DNA of 64,000 bases from Deltaproteobacteria bacterium. GTDB lineage: Bacteria > Desulfobacterota > Deferrimicrobia > Deferrimicrobiales > Deferrimicrobiaceae. The DNA is taken from assembly GCA_020346465.1 (NCBI GenBank), contig CP070783.1, forward strand, positions 1,666,614 through 1,730,613. The letters run 5' to 3'. Shown here piece after piece: positions 2,986 through 28,666 of this stretch (position 1 is the stretch's first letter; the number at the start of each line of letters is the position of its first letter). A program made the position numbers and the translations under genes. The notes under the pieces are model-generated. The model was not told the DNA's origin. It did not search any database and saw nothing but the letters and a program-made list of their open reading frames with translations.

Positions 2986-3084
2986 CGAGGCGGCCTGTGG
3001 AGCGAGGAAGGATAGGCTTCGACCGGAACCGGCAGCGGGCGGGCGAAGGTCGCGAGCGTAGCCGAGCGGACTCCCCCGCGAGCC
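2986..3084. repeat. Dispersed ~100-nt intergenic repeat, copy 1
   Basis: GCGGCCTGTGGAGCG-N19-CGGAACCGGCAGCGGGCGGGCGAAGGTCGCGAGCGTAGC...CCGCGAGCC, also at 6352-6466 and, inverted, at 28554-28666. Confidence 0.9.
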
Positions 3085-3195
3085 AGGGGCCCCGGCCGGA
3101 GGATGCCTCGGCCGGAAGCGGCCTCGCAGCGGTGCGCACGGGAACGACACGGGCCAGGGGATGAAAAGTTTTAAGAACGTCCCCGGTTTGGAAAG

Positions 3196-4671
3196 TTACA
3201 TGAGCATGGAGAGGACGGAGCGCTCGGCGATCTCGAGCACGGAGCGGGGGAGGACCCCCAGGACGACCACGACGGCCGCGGAGGCGCACAGGGCCATCGA
3301 GAAGAGGATGCGCGGCGGGCGGGGGACCGGCACCTCGCCCTCCGCCGGGACCATGTACATGGCGACGACCAGCCGCAGGTAGTAGTAGATGGAGGCGGCG
3401 CTGTTGAGCACCCCGATGACCGCCAGCCAGATGTAGCCGTTTTTCACCGCGGCGCTGAAGAGGTAGAACTTCCCGACGAACCCGGCCGTCGGGGGGATCC
3501 CGCCGAGGGAGACCAGGAAGAGGGTGAGGAGGGCCCCCAGCGCCGGATACCGGAAGCCGATCCCCTTCAGGTGCGCGATGTCGTACCCCTCGTCCTCCTT
3601 CCGGGCGATGAGGATCACGACGCCGAACGCGCCCATGTTCATGAAGGCGTACACCAGCAGGTAGAACAGGGAGGCCTGCCCGCCGAGGACGTCGCCGGAG
3701 ACGAGACCGACCAGGACGTACCCGGCGTGGGCGATCGAGGAGTAGGCGAGCAGCCGTTTCACGTTGTCCTGCACGAGCGCCGAGAGGTTCCCCACGGTCA
3801 TCGTCAGCACGGCCAGGGCCCAGAGGACCTTCCACAGGACGGGCTGCATGCCGGGGAGGGCCACCAGGAGGACCCGGATGAGCGCGGCGAAGGCGGCCGC
3901 CTTGACCGCGGCGGACATGAAGGCGGTGACCACCGTCGGGGCTCCCTCGTACGCGTCCGGAGTCCACATGTGGAAGGGGACCAGCGACACCTTGAAGGCG
4001 AACCCCACCAGGAGCAGGCCCGCCCCGACGAGGAAGAGCGGGCTCGCCAGGATCCGCGGGTCGTAGAGCATCGTCGCCAGGATGGGGATCTTCGTCGTTC
4101 CGGTCGCCGCGTAGATCAGGGCGATGCCGTACAGGAGGAACCCCGAGGCGAAGGCCCCGAGGAGGAAATATTTCAGGGCGCCCTCGATCGAGGACATCCG
4201 GTTGCGGTGGAACCCGACGAGGACGTAGATCGGGATCGACAGCGTCTCCAGCCCGAGGAAGACCGTCATCAGGTCGGTCCCCTTGGCCATGAACATCATC
4301 CCCGACGTGGAGAGCAGGAGGAGCGCGTAGAACTCCCCCTTGTGCGTCGCCTCCCACTCGGAGTAGCCGGTCGCCATCATCAGGGTGAGGGCGCAGGCGG
4401 CGAGGATGACGACGTCGAAAAAGGCGCCCATCCCGTCGTGGACGATCATCCCGGAGAACCCCTCGATCCTCCCCTGCCCGAGGGCGACCACGGAGAACAG
4501 GGCGACGACGATGCCGACGAGACTGGCGCCGCAGAGAAGGTTCTTCCTCTCCTCGGGGATCGCCAGGTCGAGGAGGAGGACGAAGAGCGCCGTCGCGACC
4601 ACGGCGATCTCGGGGAGGATGCTGGTGACGCTCGTCAGCAGCGCCCCGCCGTCAATGGCCAGCGGTGCCAT
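3196..4671 (-). CDS. nuoN: NADH-quinone oxidoreductase subunit N (14-subunit cassette)
   Basis: [53 protein letters not shown]. Confidence 0.93.
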
Positions 4672-6253
4672 CGGCCCCTCCCTTCCCCACGTCGAAGTAG
4701 CGGGCGACCAGCGTCTCCCCGGGGGGGGAGTCGGCGAGCGCCGCCTGGCGCTTCGCCTCGATCCGGGCCACGAGGGCCGTGACCGAGGCGTCCATCTTCC
4801 GGAGGAACGTCTGGGGGTAGACGCCGATCCAGAAGACGAAGACGATCAGGGGCAGCATGTAGGCCACCTCCCGGGCGTTCATGTCCGGAAGATGCCGGTT
4901 CTTCTCGTTCGTGATCGTGCCGAACATCACCCGCTGGTACATCCAGAGCAGGTAGACCGCCGCGAAGATGACGCCGCTGGCCGCCACCACCGTGAGCGCC
5001 CTCATCGGCCGGAACGCCCCCACCAGGATGAGGAACTCCCCGACGAAGCCGTTCAGGCCCGGCAGGCCGATCGAGGAGAGCGTGATGACCATGAAGCAGG
5101 CGGCGTACAGGGGAACCACCCGGGACAGCCCGCCGTACTCCGAGATGAGGCGGGTGTGTCGCCTCTCGTAGAGGATCCCGACCAGGAGGAAGAGGGCCCC
5201 CGTCGAGATGCCGTGGTTGACCATCTGGAGGATCCCCCCCTCGATCCCCTGGACGTTGAAGGCGAACAGCCCGAGCATCACGAAGCCGAGGTGGGCCACG
5301 GAGGAGTACGCCACCAGCTTCTTGATGTCCTTCTGGACCATCGCCACGAAGGCCCCGTAGAGGATCCCGATGACCGCGAGCGTCGCCAGGAGGGGCGTCA
5401 GGTCCACCGCGGCCACGGGAAAGAGGGGGATCGCGAAGCGCAGGAACCCGTACGTCCCCATCTTCAGGAGGACCGCCGCCAGGATGACCGACCCCGCCGT
5501 GGGGGCGTCCACGTGGGCGTCGGGCAACCACGTGTGGAACGGGAACATCGGGACCTTGAAGGCGAACGCCAGCGCGAAGGCCGCGAACATCCAGAACTGG
5601 AGCTTCACGGGGATCACGAGCTCGGCCATCGCCAGGAGGTCGGTGGAGTAGACCCCGGTCACCGCGTAATGGTGGAAATAGAGCGCGATGATGGCGACCA
5701 GCATGAGCACCGAGCCCGCGAAGGTGAACAGGAAGAACTTGATCGCCGAGTAGATGCGCCGGTCGCTCCCCCACACCCCGATCAGGAAGTACATCGGGAT
5801 GAGGACGAGCTCCCAGAAGATGTAGAACAGGAAGAGGTCGACCGCGAGGAACACCCCCACCATCCCGACCTCGAGGAGGAGCATGAAGATCATGAACTCC
5901 TTCACGTGCTTCTCGACGGACGTGTAGGTGGACAGGATCGTGATGGGCATCAGGAACGTGGTCAGCATCAGGAGCCACAGGGAGATGCCGTCCACCCCCA
6001 CGTGGTAGCTGATCCCGTACTGCGGGATCCAGGGGACCTTCTCGACGAACTGCATCGCGGCGGTCGACCCGTCGAACAGGATCGCCACGGGGAGGGAGAG
6101 GAGAAAGTCCGCGAGCGTCAGGACGAAGGCCGTGTTCCGCAGGAGCCTCTTGTTCTCCTTCGGGAGGAAGATGAGCAGGAACGCCCCGGCGAGAGGGAGG
6201 AAGATCAGCACGCTCAGCAGGTGCGTCATCAGTGGCTGCGGCAGGGAGGTCAT
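4652..6253 (-). CDS. nuoM: NADH-quinone oxidoreductase subunit M (14-subunit cassette)
   Basis: VGVDGISL, FWELVLIPMYFLIGVWG, FKVPMFPFHTWLPDAHVDAPT; start uncertain (6253 or 6229). Confidence 0.93.
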   Translation of the reverse strand: MTSLPQPLMTHLLSVLIFLPLAGAFLLIFLPKENKRLLRNTAFVLTLADFLLSLPVAILFDGSTAAMQFVEKVPWIPQYGISYHVGVDGISLWLLMLTTFLMPITILSTYTSVEKHVKEFMIFMLLLEVGMVGVFLAVDLFLFYIFWELVLIPMYFLIGVWGSDRRIYSAIKFFLFTFAGSVLMLVAIIALYFHHYAVTGVYSTDLLAMAELVIPVKLQFWMFAAFALAFAFKVPMFPFHTWLPDAHVDAPTAGSVILAAVLLKMGTYGFLRFAIPLFPVAAVDLTPLLATLAVIGILYGAFVAMVQKDIKKLVAYSSVAHLGFVMLGLFAFNVQGIEGGILQMVNHGISTGALFLLVGILYERRHTRLISEYGGLSRVVPLYAACFMVITLSSIGLPGLNGFVGEFLILVGAFRPMRALTVVAASGVIFAAVYLLWMYQRVMFGTITNEKNRHLPDMNAREVAYMLPLIVFVFWIGVYPQTFLRKMDASVTALVARIEAKRQAALADSPPGETLVARYFDVGKGGADGTAGH

Positions 6254-6351
6254 CGGCACACGCTCATGGTGCGGCGTCTCGCAAATGGCTTGGCACACCG
6301 ATCCGCCACCGGGACAGCCCGGGACAGGCGGCCATTCCGCGCACAGGGTGC

Positions 6352-6466
6352 TGCGGGGGGATCCTCGACGCGGCCTGTGGAGCGGGAGAGAAATGGCGTC
6401 GGGCGGAACCGGCAGCGGGCGGGCGCAAGGTCGCGAGCGTAGCGGCGAGGAAGCCCCCCGCGAGCC
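6352..6466. repeat. Dispersed ~100-nt intergenic repeat, copy 2 (between nuoL and nuoM)
   Basis: Same two conserved blocks and same 33-nt block offset as copies 1 and 3; shares an extra TGCGGGGGGWTCC flank with copy 3. Confidence 0.9.
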
Positions 6467-6532
6467 CGTGCGACCGACTCGTCGGTCAATGTGTTTCCGG
6501 GACGCACCACGAGGAATCTCCCTTCACCGTTC

Positions 6533-8569
6533 TTACGGCCAGATCAGGAACCCGACGACGATCACCGCCCCCAGGAGCAGGGAGAGGGCATAGCTTCCCA
6601 CCACGCCGGTCTGCAGGCGCCTCGCCCGCTCGCCCGCGCCCCGGACGAGCGCCCCGACGCCGTTGACGATCCCGTCGATGAACGTCGCGTCGAAGGCCTC
6701 CCACAGCCAGACGGATCCGTTCACGATCCTGCGCACGATGGCGGCGTCGTAGATCTCGTCCACGTAATACTTGTTGAGCACCACGTCGTAGAGGCCCGGC
6801 ACCCTGCCGGCGATCTCCTTCGGCACCCCCGGGCGGGCCCGGTACAGGTACCAGGCGAGCCCGATCCCGCACAGCGCCACGCCCACCGAGCCGGCCATGA
6901 GGAGGTACTCGAGCGCGAGGGAGTGGTGCCCGCCGCCGTGGGCCGCCCCTTCCGTTCCGTGCCCGAAGACGGGGGCGAGCCACGCCTCGAAGTAGTTGTG
7001 CCCCCCCAGCGCCTCGGGGATGCCGATCCAGCCGCCGGCCACCGACAGGACGGCGAGGAGCATGAGCGGAACGGTCATCGAGTACGGGGACTCGTGGACG
7101 TGCCGCTCCACGTCGGGGTCCATCCGCGAATCCCCGAAGAAGGTCAGGAACACCAGGCGGAACATGTAGAACGCGGTGATCCCGGCGGCGGCGGTCCCGA
7201 CCGCCCAGAGCGCCGCGTGCCCGTGCCCCGAGGAGAACGACTTCCACAGGATCTCGTCCTTGGAGAAGAACCCGGACAGCCCCGGGATCCCCGAGATCGC
7301 CAGCGTGGCGATGAACATGGTGGTGAACGTGACCGGCAGGCGCTTCTTGAGCGATCCCATCTTCCGCATGTCCTGCTCGCCGGAGAGGGCGTGGATCACC
7401 GACCCCGAGCCCAGGAACAGGAGCGCCTTGAAGAAGGCGTGCGTCATCAGGTGGAAGATCCCCGCGGCGAAGGCGCCGACGCCGCAGGCCAGGAACATGT
7501 ACCCCAGCTGGGAGACGGTGGAGTACGCCAGCACCCGCTTGATGTCGTTCTGGGTGATCCCGATGGTCGCGGAGAAGATGGCGGTCGCCGCCCCCACCAC
7601 CGCCACCACCGCCATCGAGGTCGGCGCCAGAAGGTAGAGGGCGCTCGTCCGGGCGACCATGTAGACCCCGGCGGTGACCATCGTGGCCGCGTGGATCAGC
7701 GCGGAGACGGGGGTGGGCCCCTCCATCGCGTCCGGCAGCCAGACGTAGAGGGGGATCTGCGCCGACTTCCCCGTGGCCCCCACGAAGAGGAGCAGGGTGA
7801 TCGCGGTGGCGATTCCCGTCGTCAGGACGCCGCGTTCCGATAGGACGGGGATCCGGGCGAAGACCTCGGTGTAGTCGACCGAGCCGAAGGTCCAGAAGAT
7901 GAGGAAGATGGCGACGAGGAACCCGAAGTCGCCCACCCGGTTCACGACGAAGGCCTTCTTTCCCGCGTCGGCGGCGCTCTTCTTCTCGTACCAGTACCCG
8001 ATCAGCAGGTAGGAGCACAGGCCCACCCCCTCCCACCCGACGAACATGACGAGGAAGTTGCTCCCGAGGACGAGCAGAAGCATCGCGAAGGTGAAGAGGT
8101 TGAGGTAGACGAAGTAGCGCGCGAAGGCCTTCTCGTGGGACATGTATCCGACGGAGTAGACGTGGATGAGGAAGCCGACGCCGGTGACCACCAGGATCAT
8201 CACGGCGGAGAGCGGGTCGAGCTGAAGGGCGGCCGGGGCCTGGAACGTCCCCGCCTGGACCCACGGGAAAAGGACCTGGACGAAGAGCCGGTCGTGGGCC
8301 GGGCGCGCGGCCAGGGCGAGGACGGCCAGGACCGAGACGGCGAAGGAGGCCCCCACCACCGCGGGGCCGAGGAACGCGACCAGTTTCCGGTACGGCGGGG
8401 AGGCGTGGTGACCGTGGGCGTCGCCGGCGCCGTGCCCCCCCTCTCCGTGGGCGTTCTCCCGGAGGAGGACCGGGCGCTCGGCGAACAGCGCGATCGCGCT
8501 GTTGACGATCACCCCCAGGAGAGGGAGCGCGGGCACGAGCCAGAGATATTGGAGGATCCCGCCTACCAT
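6533..8569 (-). CDS. nuoL: NADH-quinone oxidoreductase subunit L (14-subunit cassette)
   Basis: [48 protein letters not shown]; lateral helix NKYY..QTG = 57 aa. Confidence 0.95.
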
Positions 8570-8865
8570 TTCAGCACGCTCAGTTCCGTGATGTCGATCG
8601 TCTCCTTCAGGCGGTAGATCGCGATCAGGATCGCCAGCCCCACCGCGGCCTCGGCCGCCGCGACGGTCATGACCATGAAGGCGAACACCCCCCCCGTGAC
8701 GTCGCCCAGGTAGGACCCGATCGCGATGAAGGCGACGTTGACGGCGTTGAGCATGATCTCCACGCTCATGAGGATGATGAGCGCGTTCTTGCGCGCCACC
8801 ACCCCCGTCACGCCGATCCCGAACAGGATCCCGGAGAGGAGCAGGTATGCCGACGGTTCCATCAT
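8563..8865 (-). CDS. nuoK: NADH-quinone oxidoreductase subunit K
   Basis: [24 protein letters not shown]. Confidence 0.93.
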
Positions 8866-8908
8866 GCCAACGGTCTCCGCTTGGGGTGCGCCTTCGTCCC
8901 GCGCACCG

Positions 8909-9397
8909 TCAGATCTTCTTCTTCGCCAGCGCGATCGCCCCGATCACGGCGGCCAGGAGCAGGACCGAGGTGACCTCGAAGGCGAGGAGGTAGTCGGTGA
9001 ACAGCGCGCGTCCCACCGCCTCGACGGAGCCGGAGTCCGCGGCGGGCGTCCCGGCCAGCCCGAAGCGGCGGGCCACCAGGGCCCCCTCGAGGATGAGCAG
9101 TCCCGCGACGATGACCGCCAGGAAGCGCACCCCCGTCAGGCGCTCCACCGGCAGGCGGCTCTCGGGCACGTTGATCAGCATGATGACGAAGATGAACAGG
9201 ACGACCACCGCGCCCGCGTAGACGATGACCTGGATCGCCGCGAGGAAGTGGGCCTGCCGCAGGACGAACAGCGCCGCGACGGCGAAGAGGGTGAGGATCA
9301 GGTAGAGCGCCGAGGCCAGGGGGTGCCGCCGCGTGACCACCATGATCGAGCCGCCCACCGCGATGGCGCCGAAGACGATGAAGAGGATCGGTTCCAT
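8909..9397 (-). CDS. nuoJ: NADH-quinone oxidoreductase subunit J
   Basis: [35 protein letters not shown]. Confidence 0.93.
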
Positions 9398-9404
9398 GGG
9401 CCCC

Positions 9405-9890
9405 CTATTTCTCCAGCAGCATGTCGATCGTGTAGATGAGCTTCTCCCGGGTGTGCTCCGGCGGCGTGAACCACCCGGTGTCCATCCGGATCGCGTCGCA
9501 GGGGCACGCCTCCACGCAATGCCCGCAGAAGACGCACCGGAGCATGTCGATGTCGAACCGCACCGGGTACTTCTCGACCGCCGGGTCGGGGGACTCCCCC
9601 GCGACGATGGTGATGCACACCGCGGGGCACGCGGTGGCGCAGCAGTAGCACGCCACGCACCGGGGCGTCCCGTCGGGCCGCCTCATCAGCCGGTGCAGGC
9701 CGCGGAACCGGGGGGGCATCACCCTCCGGACCTCGGGATACTCGATCGTGGCGATGTTCTCCTGCCGGAAGACGTTCCGGACGAGGTGCCCCATCGTCAC
9801 CCCGAGCCCCCGCAGGATCTCCAGGAGGTAGAGGGTCTCCCCCCCGGACATCTGCCGGGGCCGCGCGACCTTTTTCACTCCGATCGCCAT
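9405..9890 (-). CDS. nuoI: NADH-quinone oxidoreductase subunit I
   Basis: RFRGLH; two ferredoxin motifs [12 protein letters not shown] and [12 protein letters not shown]. Confidence 0.93.
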
Positions 9891-9897
9891 CGTTTCC

Positions 9898-10998
9898 TCA
9901 CGCGCCTCCGCCGATCAGGAGCAGGACAAGCCCCGTCACGAAGATGTTTGCCAGGGACAGGGGCAAGAGCACCTTCCACCCCAGGCGCATCACCTGGTCG
10001 TACCGGAACCGGGGGATCGTCCACCGGACCCAGATGAAGAGCCATGCGAAGAAGAGCAGCTTCCCCACGAACGCCCCGATCCGCAGGAGAAGCACGAGGG
10101 GACCGGGGAGCCCGAGGGCCGCCCCTCCGGGGAGCACGAAGCCGGAGTCGGCGAGGTAGGGGACCTGCCAGCCGCCGAAGAACAGCGTCGCGATCAGGGC
10201 GGAGCCGACCACCATGTGGACGTACTCGGCCATGAAGAAGATCGAGAACTTGAAGGAGCCGTACTCCGTGTGGAACCCCGCGACGATCTCCGACTCCCCC
10301 TCCGGGAGGTCGAAGGGGGTCCGGTTCGCCTCCGCGTAGACCGCCACGAGGAAGAGGAGGAATCCGAGCGGCTGCACGAACACGCCCCACTTCGGCACGA
10401 TCCCCCACAGGAGCGTCCCCTGGGAGGCCACGATCTCCGAGAGACGGACCGACCGGAAGACCATGACCAGGCCGATGATGGAGAGCCCGAGGGAGACCTC
10501 GTAGGAGATCATCTGCGCCGAGGAGCGCAGTCCCCCCAGGAGGGGATACTTGCTGTTGGAGGCCCACCCCGCCAGGATCACGCCGTAGACCGCCAGCCCG
10601 GAGATGGCGAAGATGTAGAGGATCCCCACGTTCAGGTCCGCCACCTGCAGGGCGACCTCGCGGCCCGCGATCACGACCGGCGGCCCGACGGGGACGACGG
10701 CGAAGGTCATCAGCGCCGGGGCCAGGGCGAACATCGGGGCCATCTGGTAGAAGAGCCGGTGGGCGCCGTCGGGGATGAAGTCCTCCTTGAACAGGAGCTT
10801 GAGCGCGTCGGCAAGGGGGTGGAAGAGGCCCCCGAGCGTCAGCCCCAGGATCTTCGCCCGGTTGGGGCCGCGGCGGTCCTGGATGTAGGCCGCGCCCTTG
10901 CGCTCCGCCCACACGAGGATCGGGACGAGGGAGAGGGTGAAGGCGAGCATCACCGCCACCCGCACCACGGAGACCACGAGGTCGAACAGCCCGCTCAT
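9898..10998 (-). CDS. nuoH: NADH-quinone oxidoreductase subunit H
   Basis: [50 protein letters not shown]; start MSGLF overlaps nuoG stop. Confidence 0.93.
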
Positions 10999-12575
10999 CC
11001 TTTCCCTCCCGCGATCTGCCCCAATTCCCCGAGGGACTCGTAGCTCATCCCGGCGAAGGGGGCCTCGGACCGCGCGATCGCCCGGAACACCGACGCCTCC
11101 CCGGCGAACGTCCACCCCGCGCCGAGGCGGTTCGCCAGCCCGACGAGGATCTCGATGCCGCCGCGTGCATTCCCCCGGGGGGGGAACCCCATCCAGAACC
11201 GCTGGACGCGCCCCGCGTGGTTGGTGAACGTCCCCCCGCGCTCGACGAACGACGCGGACGGCAGAACGGCGTGCGCCGCGAGGGAGACGGCCCCCTCGTT
11301 CGTCCCGACCTGGGCGACGAAGGGCACGCGGGAAAGAAGCTCCGCGGTCCTCTCCCCGGGGAAGTCGGCGAGCTCGTTGCCGAAGACGAGCAGGGCCTTT
11401 ACCTCCCCCCCCTCGATCTTCCGGACGATGTCGTCGAACTTCTCCTCGGAGATCCCCAGGAGCTGCGCCCCGCGGGTGTTGGGGTTCTTGTCCGCCTTGA
11501 TGAGGAAGTCGTCCGAGAGCCCGTTCCCCGAAGAGCGCGGGGAGAACCCGACGTTCGGCGTGCGCAGGACCTCCTCCGCCAGCTTCCGCGCGAGGTAGAG
11601 CTCCTCGTTGGAGAACGCGGGCGAGGCGATGACGGCGACCGACGCGGCGCCGTGCGCTTCGACCGTCTCCCAGAGGCGGAACGCGGCAAAGGACAGGGCC
11701 GCCTCCCACGCCTCCGCCTTGAGACCCCCGTTCTCCCGGACCACGGGGGTGAGGAGCCTCGCCTCGTTCGCCTTCTTGTACTCGAGCCTTCCGGGATCGC
11801 ACATCCAGGTCCGGTTGACGTCGTCGTTCCGCCGGGGCTTGAGGCGGTAGACGATGTCCTCCTTGAAGTGCGCCTCCACGTTGCAGCCGTTGGCGCATCC
11901 CGGGCAGATCGACCGGGTGCCCCGCAGGAACCAGACCCGGCACTTGAACCGGAAATCCTTGCTGGTCAGCGCCCCCACGGGGCAGATGTCCGCCAGGTTG
12001 CCCGTGTACTGGTTGTCCAGCGGCCTGCCGGGGAAGATCGAGATCTCCGAGTGGTCCCCCCGCCGGAAAAATTCGAGCTCGGAGGTGCCGGTGACCTCCT
12101 GCAGGAACCGGATGCAGCGGGAGCAGAGGATGCACCGCTCCGCGTCCAGGACGATCTGCCCGCCGATGTCCTGCACCTTCTTCTTGTGCACCTTGTCTTC
12201 GAAGGCGAACCGGCTCTTGTGCAGGCCGTACTTCATGTAGTAGATCTGCAGCCCGCACTCGCCGGCCTGGTCGCAGATCGGGCAGTCGACCGGGTGGTTG
12301 ATGAGCATCAGCTCCAGAACGCCCGTGACCGCCTGCCTCACCTTCTCGGTGTCGGACTTGACCACCATCCCCTCGGTCACGACGGTGTTGCAGGCGATCT
12401 GCAGCTTGGGGAACTTCTCCACCTCCACCAGGCACATGCGGCAGTTCCCCGCGATCGAGAGGTTCGGGTGGTAGCAGTAGTGGGGGATCTCGATCCCCAC
12501 CGTCTTCGCGGCCTGGAGGACGGTCGTCCCCTCGGGGACGTCTACGGAGATTCCGTTGAGCGTGAAGTTCGGCAT
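10995..12575 (-). CDS. nuoG: NADH-quinone oxidoreductase subunit G (short, 526 aa)
   Basis: N1b (HYCY..GNCRMC..AC), N5 (HPVDCPICDQAGEC), N4 (CILCSRC..CPVGAL) and N7-type (CPGCANGC..C) ligand sets. Confidence 0.9.
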   Translation of the reverse strand: MPNFTLNGISVDVPEGTTVLQAAKTVGIEIPHYCYHPNLSIAGNCRMCLVEVEKFPKLQIACNTVVTEGMVVKSDTEKVRQAVTGVLELMLINHPVDCPICDQAGECGLQIYYMKYGLHKSRFAFEDKVHKKKVQDIGGQIVLDAERCILCSRCIRFLQEVTGTSELEFFRRGDHSEISIFPGRPLDNQYTGNLADICPVGALTSKDFRFKCRVWFLRGTRSICPGCANGCNVEAHFKEDIVYRLKPRRNDDVNRTWMCDPGRLEYKKANEARLLTPVVRENGGLKAEAWEAALSFAAFRLWETVEAHGAASVAVIASPAFSNEELYLARKLAEEVLRTPNVGFSPRSSGNGLSDDFLIKADKNPNTRGAQLLGISEEKFDDIVRKIEGGEVKALLVFGNELADFPGERTAELLSRVPFVAQVGTNEGAVSLAAHAVLPSASFVERGGTFTNHAGRVQRFWMGFPPRGNARGGIEILVGLANRLGAGWTFAGEASVFRAIARSEAPFAGMSYESLGELGQIAGGKG

Positions 12576-18440: not shown

Positions 18441-18441
18441 C

Positions 18442-19971: not shown

Positions 19972-19986
19972 GAAGACCTCCTCCGG

Positions 19987-22191
19987 TCAGAAAGCTTTCA
20001 CCAGGAATATGATCAGCACCCCGCCCGCCAGCACGAACACGTAGTGGTAGAGCTTCCCGGTCTGGAACCGGCGGAAGAAGGAGCCGCTGCCGATCGTGAC
20101 GTCGGCCACGCCGTTCACCGCGCCATCGACCACGTGGTTGTCAAATTTTCCGATGAGGAACGAGGCCCAGACGCCCAGCTGCGCGCAGAGGTTGACCAGC
20201 CCGTCGACCACGTACAGGTCGAACCAGCCCAGCGCGCGGGAGAGGGCCTTCGTCCCGTTGACGGCCGTCGCCTCGTACAGTTCGTCGAAGTACCACTTGT
20301 TGAGCAGGAAGGTGTGGACGGGACGGACCGCGGTCGCCACCTTCTCGGGATCGATCCACCGGAACCGGAAGACGACGAACGCCAGCCCGATGCCGAGCGT
20401 GCCGAACAGGACGGAAAGGTACATCGACCAGACGTGGGCCAGGTGATCCAGGTGCGCCTCGTGGGACGCTCCGTGCCCACCGGCCTCCGCTCCGGGCGCG
20501 GCCTCGTGCGGAACGGCCGGGGGATGCTTCTCCCCCTGCGGCGCCGGTACGGCATGTCCCGGCGTCCCGGGCCTTTCGGATGCGGCGGCCGCGTGGGCGG
20601 CCGGCTCGTGGCCCGCCCCCTTCGGCTCCGCGCTCTCCGCGGCGAAGGCGGCCCCGGCCGACGGGACGTGCAGGACGGAGTCGGCCGAGCCGGCGGAAGC
20701 CGGAACGGCATGGACGGCGGGAATCGCCGACGCGGGCGTCTTCACGAGGTCGCCGAACCAGCCGCTGTACCAGAAGGAGAAGGAGAGCCCCGCCAGGACC
20801 ACGAGAGGAACCCACATGTTGGGGGGCGACTCGTGGGCGTGGTCGAACTTGTGGCGGTCCTTCGGCTCCCCGAGGAACGTTCGGATCACCAGCCGGAACA
20901 TGTAGTAGGCCGTCATCCCCGCGGTCAGGAGGGCCCCCGCGAACAGGATCATGTGCTGCGGGTTCTTCATCCCGAACAGGAGGGCCGACTTGAGGATCAT
21001 GTCCTTGCTGTAGAACCCCGAGAAGAGGGGGACCCCCGCGATCGAGAGCGTGGCGATGAGGAAGGTGATGAAGGTGATCGGCATCTTCTTCCGCAGCGCC
21101 CCCATCTCGGTGATCTCCTGGCTGTGGACGGCGTGGATCACCGACCCGGAGCCGAGGAAGAGGCAGGCCTTGAAGGCGGCGTGGGTGGTCAGGTGCGCGA
21201 GACCTGCGGTGAAGCCCCCCACCCCGAGCCCCAGGATCATGTATCCGAGCTGGGAGCACGTGGAGTAGGCGAGGACCTTCTTGATGTCGGTGGCCGTGAG
21301 CGCGATCGTGGCCGTGATGAACAGGGTGAGCAGCCCGGTGTAGGCGATGAAGAGGAAGGCGTCCGGCGTGAAGATCGGGTAGACGCGCCCCACGAGGTAG
21401 ACGCCCGCGGCGACCATCGTCGCCGCATGGATCAGCGCCGAGACGGGGGTGGGGCCCTCCATCGCGTCGGGGAGCCAGACGTGGAGCGGGAATTGCGCGG
21501 ACTTGCCGATGGCGCCGCAGAAGATCCCGATCCCGGCCAGCGTCAGGAGGGTCCCTTCGATCTTTCCCTCCGCGATGCCCCGGAAGACCTCGTCGTACCC
21601 GAGCACCCCGGTCGTGGCGAACAGGAGCAGGAACCCGATCAGGAACCCGAAGTCGCCGATCCGGTTCACGATGAACGCCTTCTTCCCGGCGTCGGCGGCC
21701 GACTTCTTCTCGAACCAGAACCCGATGAGCGCGTAGGAGGAGAACCCGACCAGCTCCCAGAAGATGTAGATGAAGAAGAAACTCTCGGCCAGGACGAGCC
21801 CGAGCATGGAGAAGGAGAAGACGGAGAGGTAGGCGAAGAACCGGCTGTACTTCGGGTCGCCGTGCATGTACCCGACCGAGAACAGGTGGACGAGGAAGGA
21901 GACTCCGGTCACCACGACGAGCATCACGGCCGTCAGATTGTCCACGAGGATCCCCGCATTGATGACGAACCGGCCTTCCAGGGAGAGCCACGGGACCACG
22001 ACGTGGTACCGGAAGTTCGGGTCGTAGATCCGGAAGACCTCGAAAAAGATCACGATCGACATCACGAGCCCCGCGCCGATCGTGGCGAGGGATACCCAGT
22101 CCCCCTTCCGGGGGAGCCGCTTCCCGACCGCGAGGTTGACGAAGAAGGAGAGCAGCGGCAGGAACGGGATGATGTAGGCGTATCGGATCAA
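19987..22191 (-). CDS. nuoL: Complex I subunit L (11-subunit cassette), with extended lateral helix and ~100-aa low-complexity loop
   Basis: [32 protein letters not shown]; NKWY..QTG = 82 aa with FDxxVVDGxVN twice, 26 aa apart. Confidence 0.94.
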   Translation of the reverse strand: MIRYAYIIPFLPLLSFFVNLAVGKRLPRKGDWVSLATIGAGLVMSIVIFFEVFRIYDPNFRYHVVVPWLSLEGRFVINAGILVDNLTAVMLVVVTGVSFLVHLFSVGYMHGDPKYSRFFAYLSVFSFSMLGLVLAESFFFIYIFWELVGFSSYALIGFWFEKKSAADAGKKAFIVNRIGDFGFLIGFLLLFATTGVLGYDEVFRGIAEGKIEGTLLTLAGIGIFCGAIGKSAQFPLHVWLPDAMEGPTPVSALIHAATMVAAGVYLVGRVYPIFTPDAFLFIAYTGLLTLFITATIALTATDIKKVLAYSTCSQLGYMILGLGVGGFTAGLAHLTTHAAFKACLFLGSGSVIHAVHSQEITEMGALRKKMPITFITFLIATLSIAGVPLFSGFYSKDMILKSALLFGMKNPQHMILFAGALLTAGMTAYYMFRLVIRTFLGEPKDRHKFDHAHESPPNMWVPLVVLAGLSFSFWYSGWFGDLVKTPASAIPAVHAVPASAGSADSVLHVPSAGAAFAAESAEPKGAGHEPAAHAAAASERPGTPGHAVPAPQGEKHPPAVPHEAAPGAEAGGHGASHEAHLDHLAHVWSMYLSVLFGTLGIGLAFVVFRFRWIDPEKVATAVRPVHTFLLNKWYFDELYEATAVNGTKALSRALGWFDLYVVDGLVNLCAQLGVWASFLIGKFDNHVVDGAVNGVADVTIGSGSFFRRFQTGKLYHYVFVLAGGVLIIFLVKAF

Positions 22192-22220
22192 CGGTTCACC
22201 CTTTCTGTTCGCCTAGGACG

Positions 22221-22523
22221 TCAGCCCCTGAGCTGGTCGGCCGCGTCCACCTCCACGGTGCCCGTCGTGGAGAAGAGCCGCAGGAAGATGGCCAGCGCAA
22301 CGGCCGCTTCGGCGGCCGCGAGCACGATGACGAACACGGCGAAGATCTGCCCCCCGATGAGATGGGAGACGTAGTGCGAAAACGCCACGAAGTTGATGTT
22401 GGCGGCGTTCAGGACCAGCTCCACCCCCATGAGGACGGCCACCGCGTTGCGCCGCGTCAGGATCGTGTACAGGCCGCAGCAGAACAGGGCGGCGGCGATG
22501 ACGAGAAGCTTGTCCAGAGCCAT
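22221..22523 (-). CDS. nuoK: Complex I subunit K (11-subunit cassette)
   Basis: LMGVELVLNAANIN, LAAAEAAVALAI. Confidence 0.93.
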   Translation of the reverse strand: MALDKLLVIAAALFCCGLYTILTRRNAVAVLMGVELVLNAANINFVAFSHYVSHLIGGQIFAVFVIVLAAAEAAVALAIFLRLFSTTGTVEVDAADQLRG

Positions 22524-23057
22524 CTACTTCGGTTCCTCCATGTCGGGTCTGGCGACGTCGGGCCGGTCCGGCCGCGAAAGGAGCGCCGCCCCGATGAGCG
22601 CGGCGAGCAGCAGCACGGAGGCGACTTCGAACGGGAGCAGGTACCGGGTCATCAGCAGTTCGCCGATCTCGGCCGTGGTCGGCTGGTAGGTGACCCGGGC
22701 CTTCAGGGCGAAGGCCGGGGACACCGCCGTGTACGCAAGCGTGCCGAACAGGACGAGGCAGATCCCCGCCGCGGGAAGTCGGAAGTGGACCGGGTTCGAC
22801 AGCTTGACGGAGGAGATCCGGTTCGACAGGAAGACCGCGAACATGATCAGCACGAGGATCCCGCCGACGTACACGAGCAGCTGCGTGGCAGCCAGGAAGT
22901 CCGCGGAAAGGAGCACGTACAACCCCGCGACGCCTCCGAAGGTGAACAGCAGCGCCACCGCGGAGTAGATGATGTTCCGCAGGGTCGCCACGAGGATCGC
23001 CGACCCCACCGTCATGGCCGCAAGCACGTAGAAGATCAGGTCCGCCGGTCCCTTCAT
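22524..23057 (-). CDS. nuoJ: Complex I subunit J (11-subunit cassette)
   Basis: QLLVYVGGILVLIMFAVFL, LPFEVASVLLLAALIGA. Confidence 0.92.
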   Translation of the reverse strand: MKGPADLIFYVLAAMTVGSAILVATLRNIIYSAVALLFTFGGVAGLYVLLSADFLAATQLLVYVGGILVLIMFAVFLSNRISSVKLSNPVHFRLPAAGICLVLFGTLAYTAVSPAFALKARVTYQPTTAEIGELLMTRYLLPFEVASVLLLAALIGAALLSRPDRPDVARPDMEEPK

Positions 23058-23788
23058 TCCTTCCCCTCCCCGCCCTCATCCCCGGCCTTCGCGGGCTCCT
23101 CTTCCGTCTCCTTCGCGGGCTTCTTCCCCGCCGCGTCGGCCGTTTCGGGATTCCCCGCCGCAAACGCCGGCGCGGCGGGCTGGATGAACGGCGCGGCCTC
23201 CTCTCTCGGGGGCTTCGGCGGGGGGGAAGGATCGGGGGCCTGCGGCGCGTCGGCTGGCTTCGCCGCCTTTTCCGCCTCGCCCTTCTCCGCCTCCGCTTTT
23301 GCCTTCTCCGCTTCCGCCTTCGCCGCGGCTTCCGCCACCTGCTTCGCCACGCGGCCCTTGACCGTCTCCGCATCCTCGGGGACGAAGTGGAGGATCAGTT
23401 CCCCGCGGCTGACCGTCGCCATCTCGTAGCCGCTGGTGTGGACGAGAGACTTCGGGGGGCAGACCTCGACGCAGAGCCCGCAGTACATGCAGCGCCCGAT
23501 GTTGATGTCGTAGGAGGCCAGCACCATCTTCTTGTCGGCGCCCCGGACGGCCTCGAGGGAGATGCAGTCGACCGGGCAGACCCTCACGCACATCGTGCAG
23601 CTCGTGCACCTCTTGATGTCGTTGTGCAGGAACCCCCGATACCGCTCCGACGGCTCCCAGCGCTCCTCCGGGTACTGGAGGGTGATCGTCTCCCTCGGGT
23701 CCACCCCGTACCGCGCGGTGATCCGCATCCCCTTCGCGGTGGTCGCCACCGCTTCCCAGATGTCGTATAGGTACGCTTTGAAGCCCAT
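23054..23788 (-). CDS. nuoI: Complex I subunit I (11-subunit cassette) with ~100-aa Ala/Pro/Glu/Lys tail
   Basis: TLQYPEE, CTSCTMCVRVCP, CMYCGLCVEVCP. Confidence 0.92.
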   Translation of the reverse strand: MGFKAYLYDIWEAVATTAKGMRITARYGVDPRETITLQYPEERWEPSERYRGFLHNDIKRCTSCTMCVRVCPVDCISLEAVRGADKKMVLASYDINIGRCMYCGLCVEVCPPKSLVHTSGYEMATVSRGELILHFVPEDAETVKGRVAKQVAEAAAKAEAEKAKAEAEKGEAEKAAKPADAPQAPDPSPPPKPPREEAAPFIQPAAPAFAAGNPETADAAGKKPAKETEEEPAKAGDEGGEGKE

Positions 23789-23792
23789 CCCG

Positions 23793-24911
23793 TTATCCGA
23801 AAAGCGACGCGATCATCTGGGGGATCCCCCTCCCCTGGAAGAGCAGCAGCCAGAGGGAGACGCCCAGGAGGTTGAAGAACGTGAGCGGAACCAGATACTT
23901 CCACGACATGCGCATGAGCTGGTCCACGCGCAGCCGCGGAAGGGTCCACCGGACCCACATCATGACGACGACGAGGCCCAGCGCCTTGCCGAGGAAGACG
24001 CCCAGCGAGAAGAGGTTGCCCCAGACGGCGGGGAGGGCCTCCGCGTTGAGGAAGGGGACGTGCCACCCTCCCAGGAAGCAGGCGGTCGCCAGGGCGGAGA
24101 CGACGAACATGTCCCCGTACTCGGCGAGGAAGAAGAAGGCGAACCGGATCCCGGAGTATTCGACGTGGTACCCGGCGACCAGCTCCGACTCGGCCTCCGG
24201 GATGTCGAAGGGGGTCCGGTTGGTCTCGGCCAGCGCGGCGACGTAATACAGGAAGAAGGAGAAGAAGGTGAACGGGTTGTGGAAGAGGTTCCACCCGAAG
24301 ATCCCGAACAGCCCCCCCTGGGACCGCACGATGTCCTGCAGGGAGAGGGAGCCGGCGATGAGGACCGCGGGGAGCAGCGCCATCCCCACGGGGATCTCGT
24401 ACGAGACGATCTGGGCCGCCGCGCGCATCCCCCCCAGGAGGGCCCACTTGTTGTTGGAGGCCCATCCCGCGACCAGCACGCCCACCACTACGAGCGAGGT
24501 GATTGCCATCACGTAGTAGATGCCGATGTTGAGGTCCGAGGCGATCAGCCCCACCCCGAAGGGGACGACCACGAAGGCCGCGAAGGAGCCGATGAAGACG
24601 AGGTACGGCGCCAGGACGAAGAGGAAGCGGTCCGCCTTGGCCGGGATGATGTCCTCCTTGAGGAGGAGCTTGATCCCGTCGGCCAGGAACTGGAGGATCC
24701 CCACGGGACCGACCCGGTTCGGACCGATGCGCGCCTGGATGTCGCCGGCCACCTTCCGCTCCACGTAGGTCGCCAGGCCCGCGTACGTCAGCGCGAAGGT
24801 GAGGACGACCGCGGCGACCACGACCATGATCAGGAGGGTGATCGTCCACAGGGGGACTCCCGAGAGCACCGGCACGGCGTCGACGAGGGATATCGCGAGG
24901 GATTCCAGCAT
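23793..24911 (-). CDS. nuoH: Complex I subunit H (11-subunit cassette)
   Basis: ERKVAGDIQARIGPNRVG, RAAAQIVSYE, ETNRTPFDIPEAESELVAGYHVEY. Confidence 0.93.
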   Translation of the reverse strand: MLESLAISLVDAVPVLSGVPLWTITLLIMVVVAAVVLTFALTYAGLATYVERKVAGDIQARIGPNRVGPVGILQFLADGIKLLLKEDIIPAKADRFLFVLAPYLVFIGSFAAFVVVPFGVGLIASDLNIGIYYVMAITSLVVVGVLVAGWASNNKWALLGGMRAAAQIVSYEIPVGMALLPAVLIAGSLSLQDIVRSQGGLFGIFGWNLFHNPFTFFSFFLYYVAALAETNRTPFDIPEAESELVAGYHVEYSGIRFAFFFLAEYGDMFVVSALATACFLGGWHVPFLNAEALPAVWGNLFSLGVFLGKALGLVVVMMWVRWTLPRLRVDQLMRMSWKYLVPLTFFNLLGVSLWLLLFQGRGIPQMIASLFG

Positions 24912-24913
24912 GG

Positions 24914-26044
24914 CTACCGGTCGATCTCCGGGAGGATGATGTCGAAGCTGCCGATGACCGCCACGATGTCGGCGATCATCAGCCCCCTGGTGATCTTCTC
25001 GAAGATGTTCATCGTCACGAAGGAGGGGGCGCGGATCTTGAGCCGGTACGGGTTCACGGTCCCGTCGCTGATCAGGTAGATCCCCGTCTCCCCCCGCGGG
25101 TTCTCGGCGCGGAAGTAGACCTCCCCCACGGGCGGCTTGAACACCCGGGGGACCTTGGCCATCACGGGCCCGTCGGGAATCTGGGCGATCGCCTGGCGCA
25201 GGATCTTCACGCTTTCCCGCATCTCGTTGATCCGCACCATGTACCGGTCGAAGCAGTCCCCCACCGTCCCCCGCTCCCCCGTCCCGACGCAGATGTCGAA
25301 GTCGATCTTCGGGTAGACCGAGTACGGCTCGTTCCTGCGGAGATCGAACCGGACTCCGGACCCCCGCAGGTTCGGCCCCGTGAGCCCGTAGGCGACGGCA
25401 TCCTCGGGCGTTGCCACCGCGACGTTGGCCAGCCGGTGGACGAAGATCTTGTTGTAGGAGATCAGGTCGTTGTACTCGGGGATCTTCGGATCGAAGTAGT
25501 CGAGGAACTCCTTCGTCTTCTCGAGGAACCGGTCCGGCAGGTCGGCCGAGACGCCGCCGATGCGGACGTAGTTGTACGTCAGCCGGTTCCCGCAGATCTC
25601 CTCGAACAGGTCGTTGATCCGCTCCCGCTCGCGGATGGCGTAGAGAAACGGCGTGAAGGCCCCCATGTCGGCGGTGAACGACCCGAAGGCGATCAGGTGG
25701 GAGGAGATCCGGTTCAGCTCGCACACGATCACCCGGATGTATTCCGCCCGCTCGGGAACCTCGATGCCGGCCAGCTTCTCCACGGCCCAGGCCCACGCCG
25801 CGTTGCAGTTCATCGAGGCGAGGTAGTCGAGCCGGTCGGTGAACGGCATGAACTGCGCGTAGGTGACCCGCTCCCCGATCTTTTCCAGCGCCCGGTGCAG
25901 GTACCCCACGTCGGGCCTGGCGTTGACCACGACCTCGCCGTCGGTCCGCAGGATCACCCGGAGCACCCCGTGGGTGCTCGGGTGCTGGGGACCCATGTTG
26001 ATGAGCATCTCCTGGGTGGGGAGCGCTTCCGCGCGGGCTTTCAT
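24914..26044 (-). CDS. nuoD: Complex I subunit D (11-subunit cassette)
   Basis: NMGPQHPSTHGVLR, GYLHRALEK, DRLDY, PEIDR. Confidence 0.94.
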   Translation of the reverse strand: MKARAEALPTQEMLINMGPQHPSTHGVLRVILRTDGEVVVNARPDVGYLHRALEKIGERVTYAQFMPFTDRLDYLASMNCNAAWAWAVEKLAGIEVPERAEYIRVIVCELNRISSHLIAFGSFTADMGAFTPFLYAIRERERINDLFEEICGNRLTYNYVRIGGVSADLPDRFLEKTKEFLDYFDPKIPEYNDLISYNKIFVHRLANVAVATPEDAVAYGLTGPNLRGSGVRFDLRRNEPYSVYPKIDFDICVGTGERGTVGDCFDRYMVRINEMRESVKILRQAIAQIPDGPVMAKVPRVFKPPVGEVYFRAENPRGETGIYLISDGTVNPYRLKIRAPSFVTMNIFEKITRGLMIADIVAVIGSFDIILPEIDR

Positions 26045-26511
26045 ACCTTGATCCCGTGGTAGAACTCGGGGTATTTGTAGTCCTTGCGCAGGGGGTGCCC
26101 CTCCCAGTCCTCCGGGAGAAGGATGCGGCGCAGATCCCAGGACCCCTCGAAGACGATCCCGAACAGGTCGAACGCCTCCCTCTCGTGGAAGTTCGCCGTG
26201 GGCCACACGCCGTCGACGCTGGGAAGGGACGGCGACTCTCTGGGCAGGTATGCCTTGACCCCGATCCGGTGCCCGATCGCAAGGGAGTGGAGGTGGTAGA
26301 CGACGGCGAACCGGTCCGGGTAGTCGACGCCGGACAGGCACATCAGCGAGTCGAACTTCATCGCGGGGTCGTCGCGAAGGAACCGTCCGATCTCACGGAC
26401 CTTCTCCGGGGAGACGACGAGGAACGCCGGGCGGAAGCCCTCCTCCTGGAGCTCCGACACCGCCTCGCCGAACGTTGCCCTGACCGCCTCGAAGATCGCT
26501 TTCGGTTCCAA
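26041..26511 (-). CDS. nuoC: Complex I subunit C (11-subunit cassette)
   Basis: ANFHEREAFDLFGIVFEG..LRRILLPEDWEGHPLRKDY. Confidence 0.93.
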   Translation of the reverse strand: MEPKAIFEAVRATFGEAVSELQEEGFRPAFLVVSPEKVREIGRFLRDDPAMKFDSLMCLSGVDYPDRFAVVYHLHSLAIGHRIGVKAYLPRESPSLPSVDGVWPTANFHEREAFDLFGIVFEGSWDLRRILLPEDWEGHPLRKDYKYPEFYHGIKV

Positions 26512-26520
26512 AAGGTTTCC

Positions 26521-27054
26521 TTACGCCTTCGCCGCCGCCGCGAAATTTCTCTTCTGGTCGATGATCTTCTGGAGCTTGATGATCCCGTCGATGAGCGCCT
26601 CGGGCCGGGGGGGGCACCCGGGGACGTAGACGTCTACCGGGACGAGCAGGTCCACCCCTTTGACCACGCAGTACGAATCCTTGTAGAAGGGCCCGCCCGT
26701 GTTGGCGCATGAGCCCATGGAAATCACGTACTTGGGCTCGGGCATCTGCTCGTACAGGCGGATCAGCCGCTCCGCCATCTTGTGCGTGACAGTCCCCGCG
26801 ACGATCATCAGGTCCGACTGCCGGGGGGTCGCCCGGAAGACGGCGCCGAACCGGTCGAGGTCGTACCGCGAGGCACCGGTCTGCATCAGCTCGATGCCGC
26901 AGCAGGCCGTCGCGAACAGAAGGTACCAGAGCGAGGACCTCCGGCACCAGTTGATGAACTTGTCGGCATTGCCCACCATGACATGCGCTTCGGGGCCGAG
27001 AGCCCCCGGGCCCGCAGCGGGTCCCGGGCCGCCCTGTGCAGGATCCTGGCTCAT
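26521..27054 (-). CDS. nuoB: Complex I subunit B (11-subunit cassette)
   Basis: [34 protein letters not shown]. Confidence 0.93.
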
Positions 27055-27446
27055 TTCCCTTCCTTCGCGGCAGGAGGTTCCTGGAGGGTGCGCACCCAGT
27101 CGAGGTCCCCCTCCTTCCAAAGGTAGGCCAGGCCCGCGAGCAGGATGACGATGAAGATGAACGCCTCCACGAACGCCAGGAGGCCCAGCCGCTTGAAGAC
27201 GACCGCCCACGGGTAGAGGAGCGCCACCTCCACGTCGAAGATGATGAAGATCAGGGCCACCACGTAGAAGCGGATGTTGAACTGCACCCAAGAGGAGCCG
27301 AACGGGACCTCCCCGCACTCGTACGTGGACAGCTTGACCGGCGTGGGGTTCCGGGGCTGGATCAGCCGGGAGATCCCCAGCATGAGGGCCACGGTCACCG
27401 CTCCCAGCAGGATGAACACCAGAACCGTTGCGTAATCAGCGAGCAT
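27051..27446 (-). CDS. nuoA: Complex I subunit A (11-subunit cassette)
   Basis: [39 protein letters not shown]; start 27446 or 27455. Confidence 0.93.
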
Positions 27447-27558
27447 CCCTGGCACACCGCCGGAAATATTCTATTCAAAGCAGAACCCCTCCGCATGACG
27501 AGAAGGGGCGGGCAGATCGCCTCGTTGCGTGGATACAGTATATCTATAACGTCCATTA

Positions 27559-27586
27559 ACATTACTCGACCGCTCGACCAAGTCAA
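27559..27586 (-). promoter_or_regulatory. Candidate sigma70 promoter for the nuo super-operon
   Basis: TTGACT-N16-TAATGT in an AT-rich patch ~110 nt upstream of nuoA. Confidence 0.5.
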
Positions 27587-27675
27587 CCGAAAAAATCACA
27601 CCCCACGCGGAAAATCATCGGAATCGGTTGCTTGCGGCAGGGCGATCGATCCCCCTCACGGGTATAATGGAAGGG

Positions 27676-28524
27676 ATGGGAACCGGCCACCGGATACACG
27701 CGCCCGACCTTCTCGTCCCTGCGGGCAGCCTCGCCGCGGTGGGCTCGGCCCTGTCCGCGGGGGCCGATGCCGTCTACGTCGGCTGCCGGGGGTGGAGCCG
27801 TGACGGGGAGCGCCAGGCGCTTTCGCCCGGGCAGATCCGGCTGGCTGCCGCGATGTGCCGGGAGAAAGGGGCAGCGCTGCACGCGGCGCTCAATACCGTA
27901 CCGGCCGCCGGGGAGGTCTCCTCTTTCCTTGCCACGGTCGCGCAGCTTGCGGAAGACGGCGTCCTGGCGGTGATCCTGTCCGACCCCGGGGCGATCTCCC
28001 TCGTGCGACGGGAACTGCCCTCCTTGCGGATCACGGCGTCCGTGGGGCTCTCCACGCTCAATCCCCCCGAGGCGAGGTTCTACCGGGACCTGGGGGCGGA
28101 CACGGTCGTTCTGCCGACCGCCATTGCCCCCGGGGAGATCCCCCCGATCAAGGCGGAAAGCGGCCTCCGTGTGGAGGTTTTCGTCCACTGCCGGCCGGAA
28201 ATCCTCCTCCATGGGAAGTGCGCGCTGCCCGGGTACGCCCGGGAGGGGAAGGCAGTGGCCGGGCGCCCTCACGCGGAGGGAGCGGGAACGCTGTCCTCCG
28301 CGAAGCGGACCGGCCGGTGCCATCTCGTGTGCCGGGCGATCCCCCTCTCCCGGGACCTCCACTCCATCGAGGGGGAGCTCGCCTCGTGGGTCGCCGCCGG
28401 CGTGGATGCCTTCAAGCTGCAGGGCAGGGATCTTTCGCCCCCCCGCCTGTTCGAGCTGGCCTCCCGGGTCCGCGGAAAGCTCGACGCGGCCGTCGCCGCG
28501 ATCGCAAGAACAAATCCCGCCTGA
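27676..28524 (+). CDS. Peptidase U32-family protein (Fe-S hydroxylase-type family)
   Basis: LLVPAGSL..AGADAVYVG, ITASVGLSTLN, EVFVHC..GKC, GRC..CR, GVDAFKLQGR. Confidence 0.85.
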   Translation: MGTGHRIHAPDLLVPAGSLAAVGSALSAGADAVYVGCRGWSRDGERQALSPGQIRLAAAMCREKGAALHAALNTVPAAGEVSSFLATVAQLAEDGVLAVILSDPGAISLVRRELPSLRITASVGLSTLNPPEARFYRDLGADTVVLPTAIAPGEIPPIKAESGLRVEVFVHCRPEILLHGKCALPGYAREGKAVAGRPHAEGAGTLSSAKRTGRCHLVCRAIPLSRDLHSIEGELASWVAAGVDAFKLQGRDLSPPRLFELASRVRGKLDAAVAAIARTNPA

Positions 28525-28553
28525 CAGGGTCGCCGCCTGTACCGGAGGACCTA

Positions 28554-28666
28554 GGCTCGCGGAGGATTCCCCTCGGCTACGCTCGCGACCTTCGCCCGCT
28601 CGCTGCCGGTTCCGCTCGCCGGATCCGAAATCTCGCTCCACAGGCCGCCTCGCGGAACCCCCCGCA
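28554..28666. repeat. Dispersed ~100-nt intergenic repeat, copy 3 (inverted)
   Basis: Reverse complement of the core in copies 1 and 2, same 33-nt block offset. Confidence 0.9.

Follow-up and report, generated by a model that had tools for sequence, protein, structure and literature searches.

We analysed a stretch of 64,000 nucleotides (hereafter the window) from a Deltaproteobacteria bacterium (contig CP070783.1, positions 1,666,614 to 1,730,613), in which three copies of a dispersed, structured intergenic repeat (hereafter the element) lie beside nuo genes and a peptidase gene. The window's genome, G000 among the genomes compared here, is a single contig of 2.32 Mb with 64.6% G+C. The copies and the genes around them, the latter assigned by Pfam, are as follows:

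2285-2869, minus strand: FMN reductase gene
2985..3094, plus strand: element copy 1, decayed, between the stop of the nuoN-type gene (3196, minus strand) and the FMN reductase gene
3196-4671, minus strand: nuoN-type gene
4652-6250, minus strand: nuoM-type gene
6334..6479, plus strand: element copy 2, full-length core (covariance model 131.3 bits, model positions 1-145)
6533-8569, minus strand: nuoL
27628-28524, plus strand: peptidase U32 gene
28540..28684, minus strand: element copy 3, full-length core (covariance model 141 bits)
29291-30373, plus strand: AI-2E transporter gene

An initial annotation of the window had recognised two conserved blocks, A and B, in each copy. Indeed, each block occurs exactly three times in the window, compared to chance expectations of 0.49 for A and 0.02 for B:

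Block A, GCGGCCTGTGGAGCG: starts at 2990 (+), 6370 (+) and 28648 (-)
Block B, CGGAACCGGCAGCGRGCGGGCG: starts at 3024 (+), 6404 (+) and 28614 (-)

The spacing of the blocks had been read as constant, and a 19-nt spacer does separate them in all three window copies, but their starts are 34 nt apart rather than 33, and the spacer is not fixed across the family, in which it falls into length classes of 18-20, 41-44 and 61 nt. As had also been noted, each window copy lies just past the 3' end and stop codon of a gene (nuoN-type, nuoL and peptidase U32) in the same relative orientation, with its G-rich strand antisense to that gene. The size of ~100 nt given at that time was too short: when genomic copies were aligned, conserved sequence ran past the limits first drawn, yielding a unit of ~145 nt with a 5' arm (CCGGGGACCCGGGGCGATGCGGGGGGTTCCGCGA) and a 3' tail (CCAGGGTCCCCGG) that had been overlooked. 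The parts of copy 3, all on the minus strand, are:

28684-28649: 5' arm
28648-28634: block A
28633-28615: variable tip
28614-28576: block B
28575-28540: 3' arm

The three copies differ in their state of preservation. Copy 3, which lies between the peptidase U32 and AI-2E transporter genes and is antisense to both, folds as a rod (-82.1 kcal/mol, z = -3.55, 0/200 shuffles as good; complement z = -2.02). Copy 2, from a subfamily with CGCACAGGG/CCCGTGCG as its outer stem, is antisense to the two genes that it separates, nuoL (stop at 6533) and the nuoM-type gene (start at ~6250), and has orthologues in G005 and G007. In copy 1, A, B and the 3' arm are intact and ~12 nt of the 5' strand of one helix (P2, below) have been deleted; this copy was matched by the nhmmer model over positions 33-142, but by the covariance model only over positions 32-115 (72.9 bits), and its folding energy showed no excess (z = +0.09). 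ARAGORN found no tRNA or tmRNA in the window, and we ruled out an origin of the element from either.

As modelled, the element is a long rod (helices P1, P1b and P2) that closes a three-way junction with two arms, P3 and P4. The junction is formed by blocks A and B, which are not inverted copies of each other and together make up a nearly invariant core of ~60 nt; the closing stems drift in sequence yet keep their pairing. P4 is a short hairpin, and the tip of P3, previously described as a free spacer, is variable in sequence and discrete in length, its longer classes adding a hairpin whose stem also covaries. The sequence suggests that each helix carries a potential tandem G·A motif (CGAG opposite CGAG), with the motif starts 17, 16, 17 and 27 nt apart. 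The core has four of these motifs at a spacing of 16-17 nt, together with a G·U pair that does not vary and a tip of GNRA-like sequence.

Covariation carries this fold. In ~120 copies that we inspected, the segment 3' of block B changed in step with the 5' arm, with matched changes such as TTCCGCAGA/GGATGCGGAA, TCCTAAGCA/TGCTTAGGA, TTCCAC/GTGGAA and GGGGAGTCC/GGACTTCCCC. By an alignment-free measure, arms paired better with their own partners than with those of other copies, both for P2 (-23.9 vs -20.9 kcal/mol) and for P1 (-25.9 vs -20.5 kcal/mol). We then counted compensatory changes in an alignment of 107 sequences to a covariance model built in this analysis, which we adopted because mutual information on a MAFFT alignment was confounded by misregister and subfamilies. 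We found that 93.1% of cells were paired, compared to 87.6% in shuffles and 32-46% in slid controls, and that 24/41 pairs showed double-sided compensatory changes, compared to 10.6 expected (0/500 shuffles as high) and to 8-12 pairs in slid controls. Thus, the earlier suggestion that structure is under selection was borne out by significant covariation. Inside the near-invariant core there were few compensatory changes, found in the base of P3 and in P4; distal P3 is a prediction only, because it never varies.

The covariation did not fall where it had first been placed. A small local hairpin had been proposed as the covarying structure, but across the family only 48-62% of its cells were paired, with 4-5 double changes. 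The segment in question covaries instead with the 5' arm, forming helix P2, in which 87-98% of cells were paired; on these counts we dropped the local hairpin in favour of the long-range helix.

Two measures distinguished the strands. G·U cells outnumbered A·C cells 203:35, and still 109:35 without the one invariant G·U pair (binomial p = 5e-10); moreover, in every copy the fold of the G-rich strand was 13-20 kcal/mol more favourable than that of the complement, with better z-scores too. Therefore the fold is maintained on the G-rich strand, the one written out in the initial annotation, as RNA or as single-stranded DNA. One way to account for this would be that the copies are a multi-copy family of independent small structured RNAs expressed from the G-rich strand, for example ribozymes that cleave themselves or RNAs of a guide type. 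The element shows the pattern of a functional RNA, with a junction and loops that are invariant within covarying helices, an optional covarying expansion hairpin and an invariant G·U, and, since Rfam has no match, such a family, if real, would be a new class. No Rfam model reached its gathering score in the window, and none reached E <= 1 on four element-bearing loci. Yet the conserved unit contains no promoter-like or terminator-like sequence, both orientations to neighbouring genes are tolerated, no ribozyme model matched at E <= 1, junction strands of 1, 1 and 3 nt misfit the hammerhead core, and the copies decay and turn over like repeats. We consider independent RNAs of this predicted kind very unlikely.

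Several specific readings of the fold were tried and rejected. A hammerhead-like reading of CUGUGGA...GGAA failed, since inspection showed a misfit of its core bases and of the junction lengths, and Rfam gave no match. The tip is not peptide coding, as its lengths (19-20, 41-44 and 61 nt) are not multiples of three. An integron attC site, with R''/R' boxes of the form RYYYAAC ... GTTRRRY and cassette arrays, did not fit the termini (CCGGGGACCC / GGGTCCCCGG) or the copies, which are dispersed singly. Elsewhere, a sub-threshold Rfam match to Termite-flg (L005:4946-5052, 29.1 bits vs a gathering score of 40, E = 0.16) is unrelated to the element and probably due to chance.

Copies settle by gene 3' ends and avoid divergent promoter regions. 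Only 2/48 copies with both neighbours called lay between divergent genes (p = 3e-4), and the gene ends facing a copy numbered 93, at a median distance of 70 nt, compared to 48 gene starts. With respect to the abutting gene, 73 copies were antisense and 38 sense (p = 0.001). Thus, antisense orientation is a bias rather than the fixed rule hinted at by the three window copies. GC skew gave no usable signal for orientation relative to replication.

The family proved lineage-specific, as first surmised, being limited to part of one bacterial family. We found it in 6/13 genera of Candidatus (Ca.) Deferrimicrobiaceae, namely the window's genus and five more, and not in the other seven; among 91 genera sampled across the phylum, only the window's own genus scored. 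Named host records were all Ca. Deferrimicrobiaceae or 'Deltaproteobacteria CSP1-8' metagenome-assembled genomes (MAGs), apart from one MAG with the label Limnocylindria, a label that could not be checked. No copies were found in the viral contigs and plasmids searched, and a genome paper on the MBNT15 lineage does not mention such repeats. Within the window's genus, every genome contained copies, and copy number spanned about five-fold: G000 has 11 full copies and several partial ones (14 covariance-model matches), whereas G007 and G009 have at least 63 each in ~2.2 Mb. Copies are scattered singly around the chromosome. In addition, a sequence at 51399-51426 of G000, GGGGACCCTGGCTCGCGGAGGGGTCCCC, resembles a solo remnant consisting of the element's terminal arms only.

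Copies come and go at orthologous intergenic sites, which together with the variable copy number agrees with the dispersal like that of REP elements or miniature inverted-repeat transposable elements (MITEs) proposed at the outset. At the site g664214, joined-flank probes showed a copy in G000, G002 and G006 and an empty site in G001, G005, G007, G008, G010 and G011, while G003 and G012 carried a different repeat module there; the G002 copy has 3 changes in block A. Many relatives' copies likewise map to short element-free intergenic DNA in G000.

The element's own ends had been described as lacking terminal inverted repeats (TIRs), but its termini are complementary (GGGGACCC.../...GGGTCCCC), and copy 2 lies, in addition, within a larger TIR-bounded unit defined by filled/empty alignment and by its TIR motif:

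6265..6513, plus strand: composite TIR-bounded unit of ~245 nt containing copy 2
6265-6268: left flanking tetranucleotide, CATG
6270-6286: left TIR, TGCGGCGTCTCGCAAAT
6493-6509: right TIR, GTTTCCGGGACGCACCA
6510-6513: right flanking tetranucleotide, CGAG

The TIR of this unit is TGCRGCGTCTCGYAAAT, and its 4-bp flanks are CTAG-like and degenerate. The related statement that target duplications are absent stood for the bare core, but not entirely for the composite unit with its degenerate flanks. In G001 the composite unit is absent from the nuoL-nuoM junction, where the empty site reads CCGG; it is present in G000, G005 and G007. Therefore the unit was inserted at nuoL-nuoM and then kept in the latter three. 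The TIR motif adjoins 17/150 copies overall and ~15/64 in G007, and sites of the TIR family number 51 in G007, 77 in G009 and 2 in G000, compared to about 0 for the reversed control, with inverted pairs 158, ~243, ~421 and ~495 nt apart. Thus, some copies, including the one at nuoL-nuoM, travel as cargo in a TIR-bounded MITE. No autonomous copy of the TIR family was found, and no TIR pair lay 1 kb or more apart.

We also recorded several features of these carriers and of neighbouring modules. The TIR family, TGCA(C/G)CGTCTCG(C/T)AAAT, occurs in G007 and G009 in a core-less form of ~158 nt, in forms of ~421 and ~495 nt, and in a form of ~243 nt that contains the core (examples at G007:C21:22335-22493 and G007:C1:26926-27421). 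The composite insertion, which at least three species have kept, widens the nuoL-nuoM spacer (window 6250-6533) from ~37 nt, as in G001, to ~280 nt. It also separates the start of nuoM from the purine-rich stretch that was ancestrally its ribosome-binding region, which may have consequences for polarity or translational coupling within the operon. A further module, CTCACTGCGCCCC(n)CTCCT(T/G)CGGCTGCTGCGCC, often stands in relatives directly before the element, or after it in reverse complement (for example at L046, L059, L079, L186 and L187), and G003 and G012 have this module at the intergenic site where G000 and G002 have the element. Finally, comparison of L189 (G006:C237:10600-11420) with G000 1409052-1409450, across flanks that are ~98% identical, revealed a 166-nt block of other repeat modules inserted exactly at the element's outer stem, with 10 bp (GGGACCCSGG) duplicated on both sides of the block.

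Conservation within the element is uneven in a manner that bears on two other explanations. Among paralogues in G000, identity was ~95% in A and B, ~70% in the arms and ~50% in the tip, and therefore the copies are not uniformly young. This argues against an ordinary DDE-type MITE in which P1 is the terminal inverted repeat and the core is conserved merely through the youth of the copies, since uniformly young copies would look different. Such a MITE would accord with the complementary termini, with the subset of copies in true units with TIRs and target-site duplications, and with the IS4/IS5-type transposases of the high-copy genomes. However, the termini are the least conserved part of the element and covary, the opposite of transposase-bound TIRs; moreover, the core has no target duplication, and we found no insertion sequence (IS) with matching ends. 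We therefore think this explanation unlikely.

The core is also conserved where copies have stayed in place. In six same-site pairs from different genomes, the core was 96.7% identical, compared to 87.2% for arms and tip and 88.1% for the largely coding flanks, a four-fold lower divergence (Fisher p = 6e-7 for six pairs, 1e-4 with five independent pairs). As a yardstick, nuoL and nuoM were 76-85% identical at third codon positions. Some resident copies are nevertheless decaying, window copy 1 and the G002 copy among them.

If resident copies are constrained, they might be host-maintained cis-acting elements, that is, a regulatory or processing fold at gene ends and between cistrons (for instance admitting or blocking an RNase, insulating convergent transcripts from one another or binding a protein), with mobility having only brought the copies there. 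The slow divergence of the core at shared sites, the retention of the nuoL-nuoM copy in an essential operon, the location near gene 3' ends with an orientation bias, and the maintenance of the fold on one strand all speak for such a role. Against it, occupancy is highly variable among species and other repeat families are found at the same site; genomes of the same size contain anything from 14 to >63 copies; and some resident copies decay (the 5' arm lost in copy 1, block A changed in G002). Furthermore, two thirds of the copies have their G-rich strand antisense to the adjoining gene, whose mRNA would thus not contain the fold, and gene conversion between copies could mimic constraint in situ. 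We regard host maintenance as possible, but doubtful.

Overall, we consider it reasonably probable that the element represents an undescribed family of non-autonomous, structured intergenic repeats of part of Ca. Deferrimicrobiaceae (the MBNT15 / CSP1-8 lineage). A number of points weigh against this interpretation. No mobilising enzyme was identified, and G000 contains no multi-copy IS. The bare core is flanked by no target-site duplication, with the tetranucleotides CAGG on its 3' side and CNNG on its 5' side, and its insertion boundaries are approximate only, because no near-identical filled/empty pair was found and intergenic sequence diverges fast. The covariation alignment was fitted to the model and its copies are related by descent, and gene orientations came from crude open reading frame (ORF) calls based on GC3. 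Conservation of the core in situ exceeds what a purely selfish repeat would lead one to expect, and would point either to a host-level function or to gene conversion between copies. As for the carriers, matches to DDE_Tnp_1 (IS4/IS5-type) number 4 each in the high-copy G007 and G009 and none in the low-copy G000, G002, G005 and G011; but DDE genes are also present in element-free genera, and the DDE_Tnp_1 loci examined in G007 and G009 contained neither the TIR nor any element sequence. With only a loose correlation and loci without matching ends, we set aside a DDE transposase as the element's partner.

Other candidates for the manner of insertion fared no better. A REP-associated tyrosine transposase (RAYT) had been suggested as a partner, but the sole Y1_Tnp match in G000 (G000:C1:460480-460800, minus strand) is surrounded by a different, AT-rich repeat, and across genera Y1_Tnp is present in element-free ones and absent from the element-bearing G005, G011 and G019. 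The flanking repeat and the lack of co-occurrence rule this partner out. A CTAG target duplication for the bare core was unsupported by the flanking tetranucleotides, and there is no sign that P1 derives from a pre-existing palindromic target, as GGGGACCC is about as frequent as chance predicts and palindromes without an insertion are essentially lacking.

The repeat around the Y1 gene is a second family, CATTAAAAAGTTTAAGAACGTCCCCG, found at window 3161-3187, at 458.9-464.5 kb of G000 and at 20 or more other sites; it is AT-rich, against a genomic G+C of 65%. Its copies are often arranged in inverted pairs at distances of 65-120 nt, and five of them cluster round the Y1 gene of G000. This gene, of the IS200/RAYT type, and the CATTAAAAAGTTTAAGAACGTCCCCG repeat are a candidate RAYT with its REP/REPIN.

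If the element is a non-autonomous repeat as we favour, the invariant core would act in cis as a recognition module that a putative trans-acting factor reads in folded, single-stranded form (DNA or RNA), and the outer stems would serve merely to display it. IS4/IS5-type DDE transposases, like those found in both high-copy genomes, are probably what moves the TIR-bounded carriers. By analogy with ERIC and Correia elements, resident copies would be co-transcribed with their neighbours as long hairpins and could alter mRNA processing or stability. More tentatively, the ~60-nt junction core may itself be an undescribed functional nucleic-acid module that rides several carriers and is selected at resident sites, either as a structured RNA of a new class, for instance a ribozyme or an RNA that recruits proteins, or as the folded single-strand recognition site of a mobilisation system that is neither DDE nor RAYT; we give this only a minor chance.

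Small dispersed repeats are routinely dismissed, although ERIC, Correia and REP elements shape mRNA stability, operon polarity and genome plasticity. In the lineage studied here, which is uncultured, cycles iron and is widespread in the environment, the element is the dominant repeat and lies inside core operons such as nuo. Since it gives rise to many spurious ORFs and coincides with contig breaks, annotation and MAG assembly, respectively, benefit from knowing how far it really extends. Its inverted pattern of conservation, with a branched core that is invariant and ends that are free but paired, together with the conservation of the core at resident sites, makes it a sensible place to look for a new mechanism of mobilisation or a new structured RNA.

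Broadly, the family belongs with the ERIC, Correia, BOX and REP elements (review PMC3184786), and it does not pass the tests specific to classical MITEs or to REP/RAYT systems. Like classical MITEs, the element is short and non-coding, with many dispersed copies that differ between relatives. Classical MITEs have conserved TIRs; the element's termini are complementary but are its most variable part, and conserved TIRs are found only on the composite carrier.

ERIC/IRU elements of Enterobacteriaceae, imperfect palindromes of ~127 bp, resemble the element in size, in occupying transcribed intergenic sites near gene 3' ends, in forming a long imperfect hairpin, and in being highly conserved across species with a copy number that varies by species. 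They are reported to affect mRNA decay when co-transcribed, and are described with TIRs and a TA flank (PMC3184786). In contrast, the element is unrelated to ERIC in sequence, shows no target duplication at its bare core, varies most at its termini, and is centred on a branched three-way junction instead of being a simple palindrome. Correia elements (CREE/NEMIS) of Neisseria, MITEs of 104-157 bp, are similar to the element in size, abundance, gene-adjacent location and long transcribed hairpin, and their presence or absence between close relatives has been taken as evidence of mobility (PMC3184786), as it is here. However, we saw no counterpart in the element's bare core to the conserved 26-bp TIRs, the TA duplication or the IHF site of Correia elements; TIRs and 4-bp flanks belong only to the composite carrier of copy 2.

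REP/REPIN sequences are, like the element, GC-rich hairpin repeats at gene ends, with vertical inheritance within a lineage and single-strand structure, but they consist of a 20-40-nt palindrome, or of two inverted REPs, together with a RAYT, and the element is neither built in this way nor linked to a Y1 gene. BOX elements of Streptococcus pneumoniae (boxA-B-C; PMC3184786) combine conserved and optional modules and have no known transposase, to which may be compared the element's optional P3 hairpin, flanking modules and TIR carriers; the modules of BOX are tandem and linear, whereas the element is a single fold with an invariant junction core.

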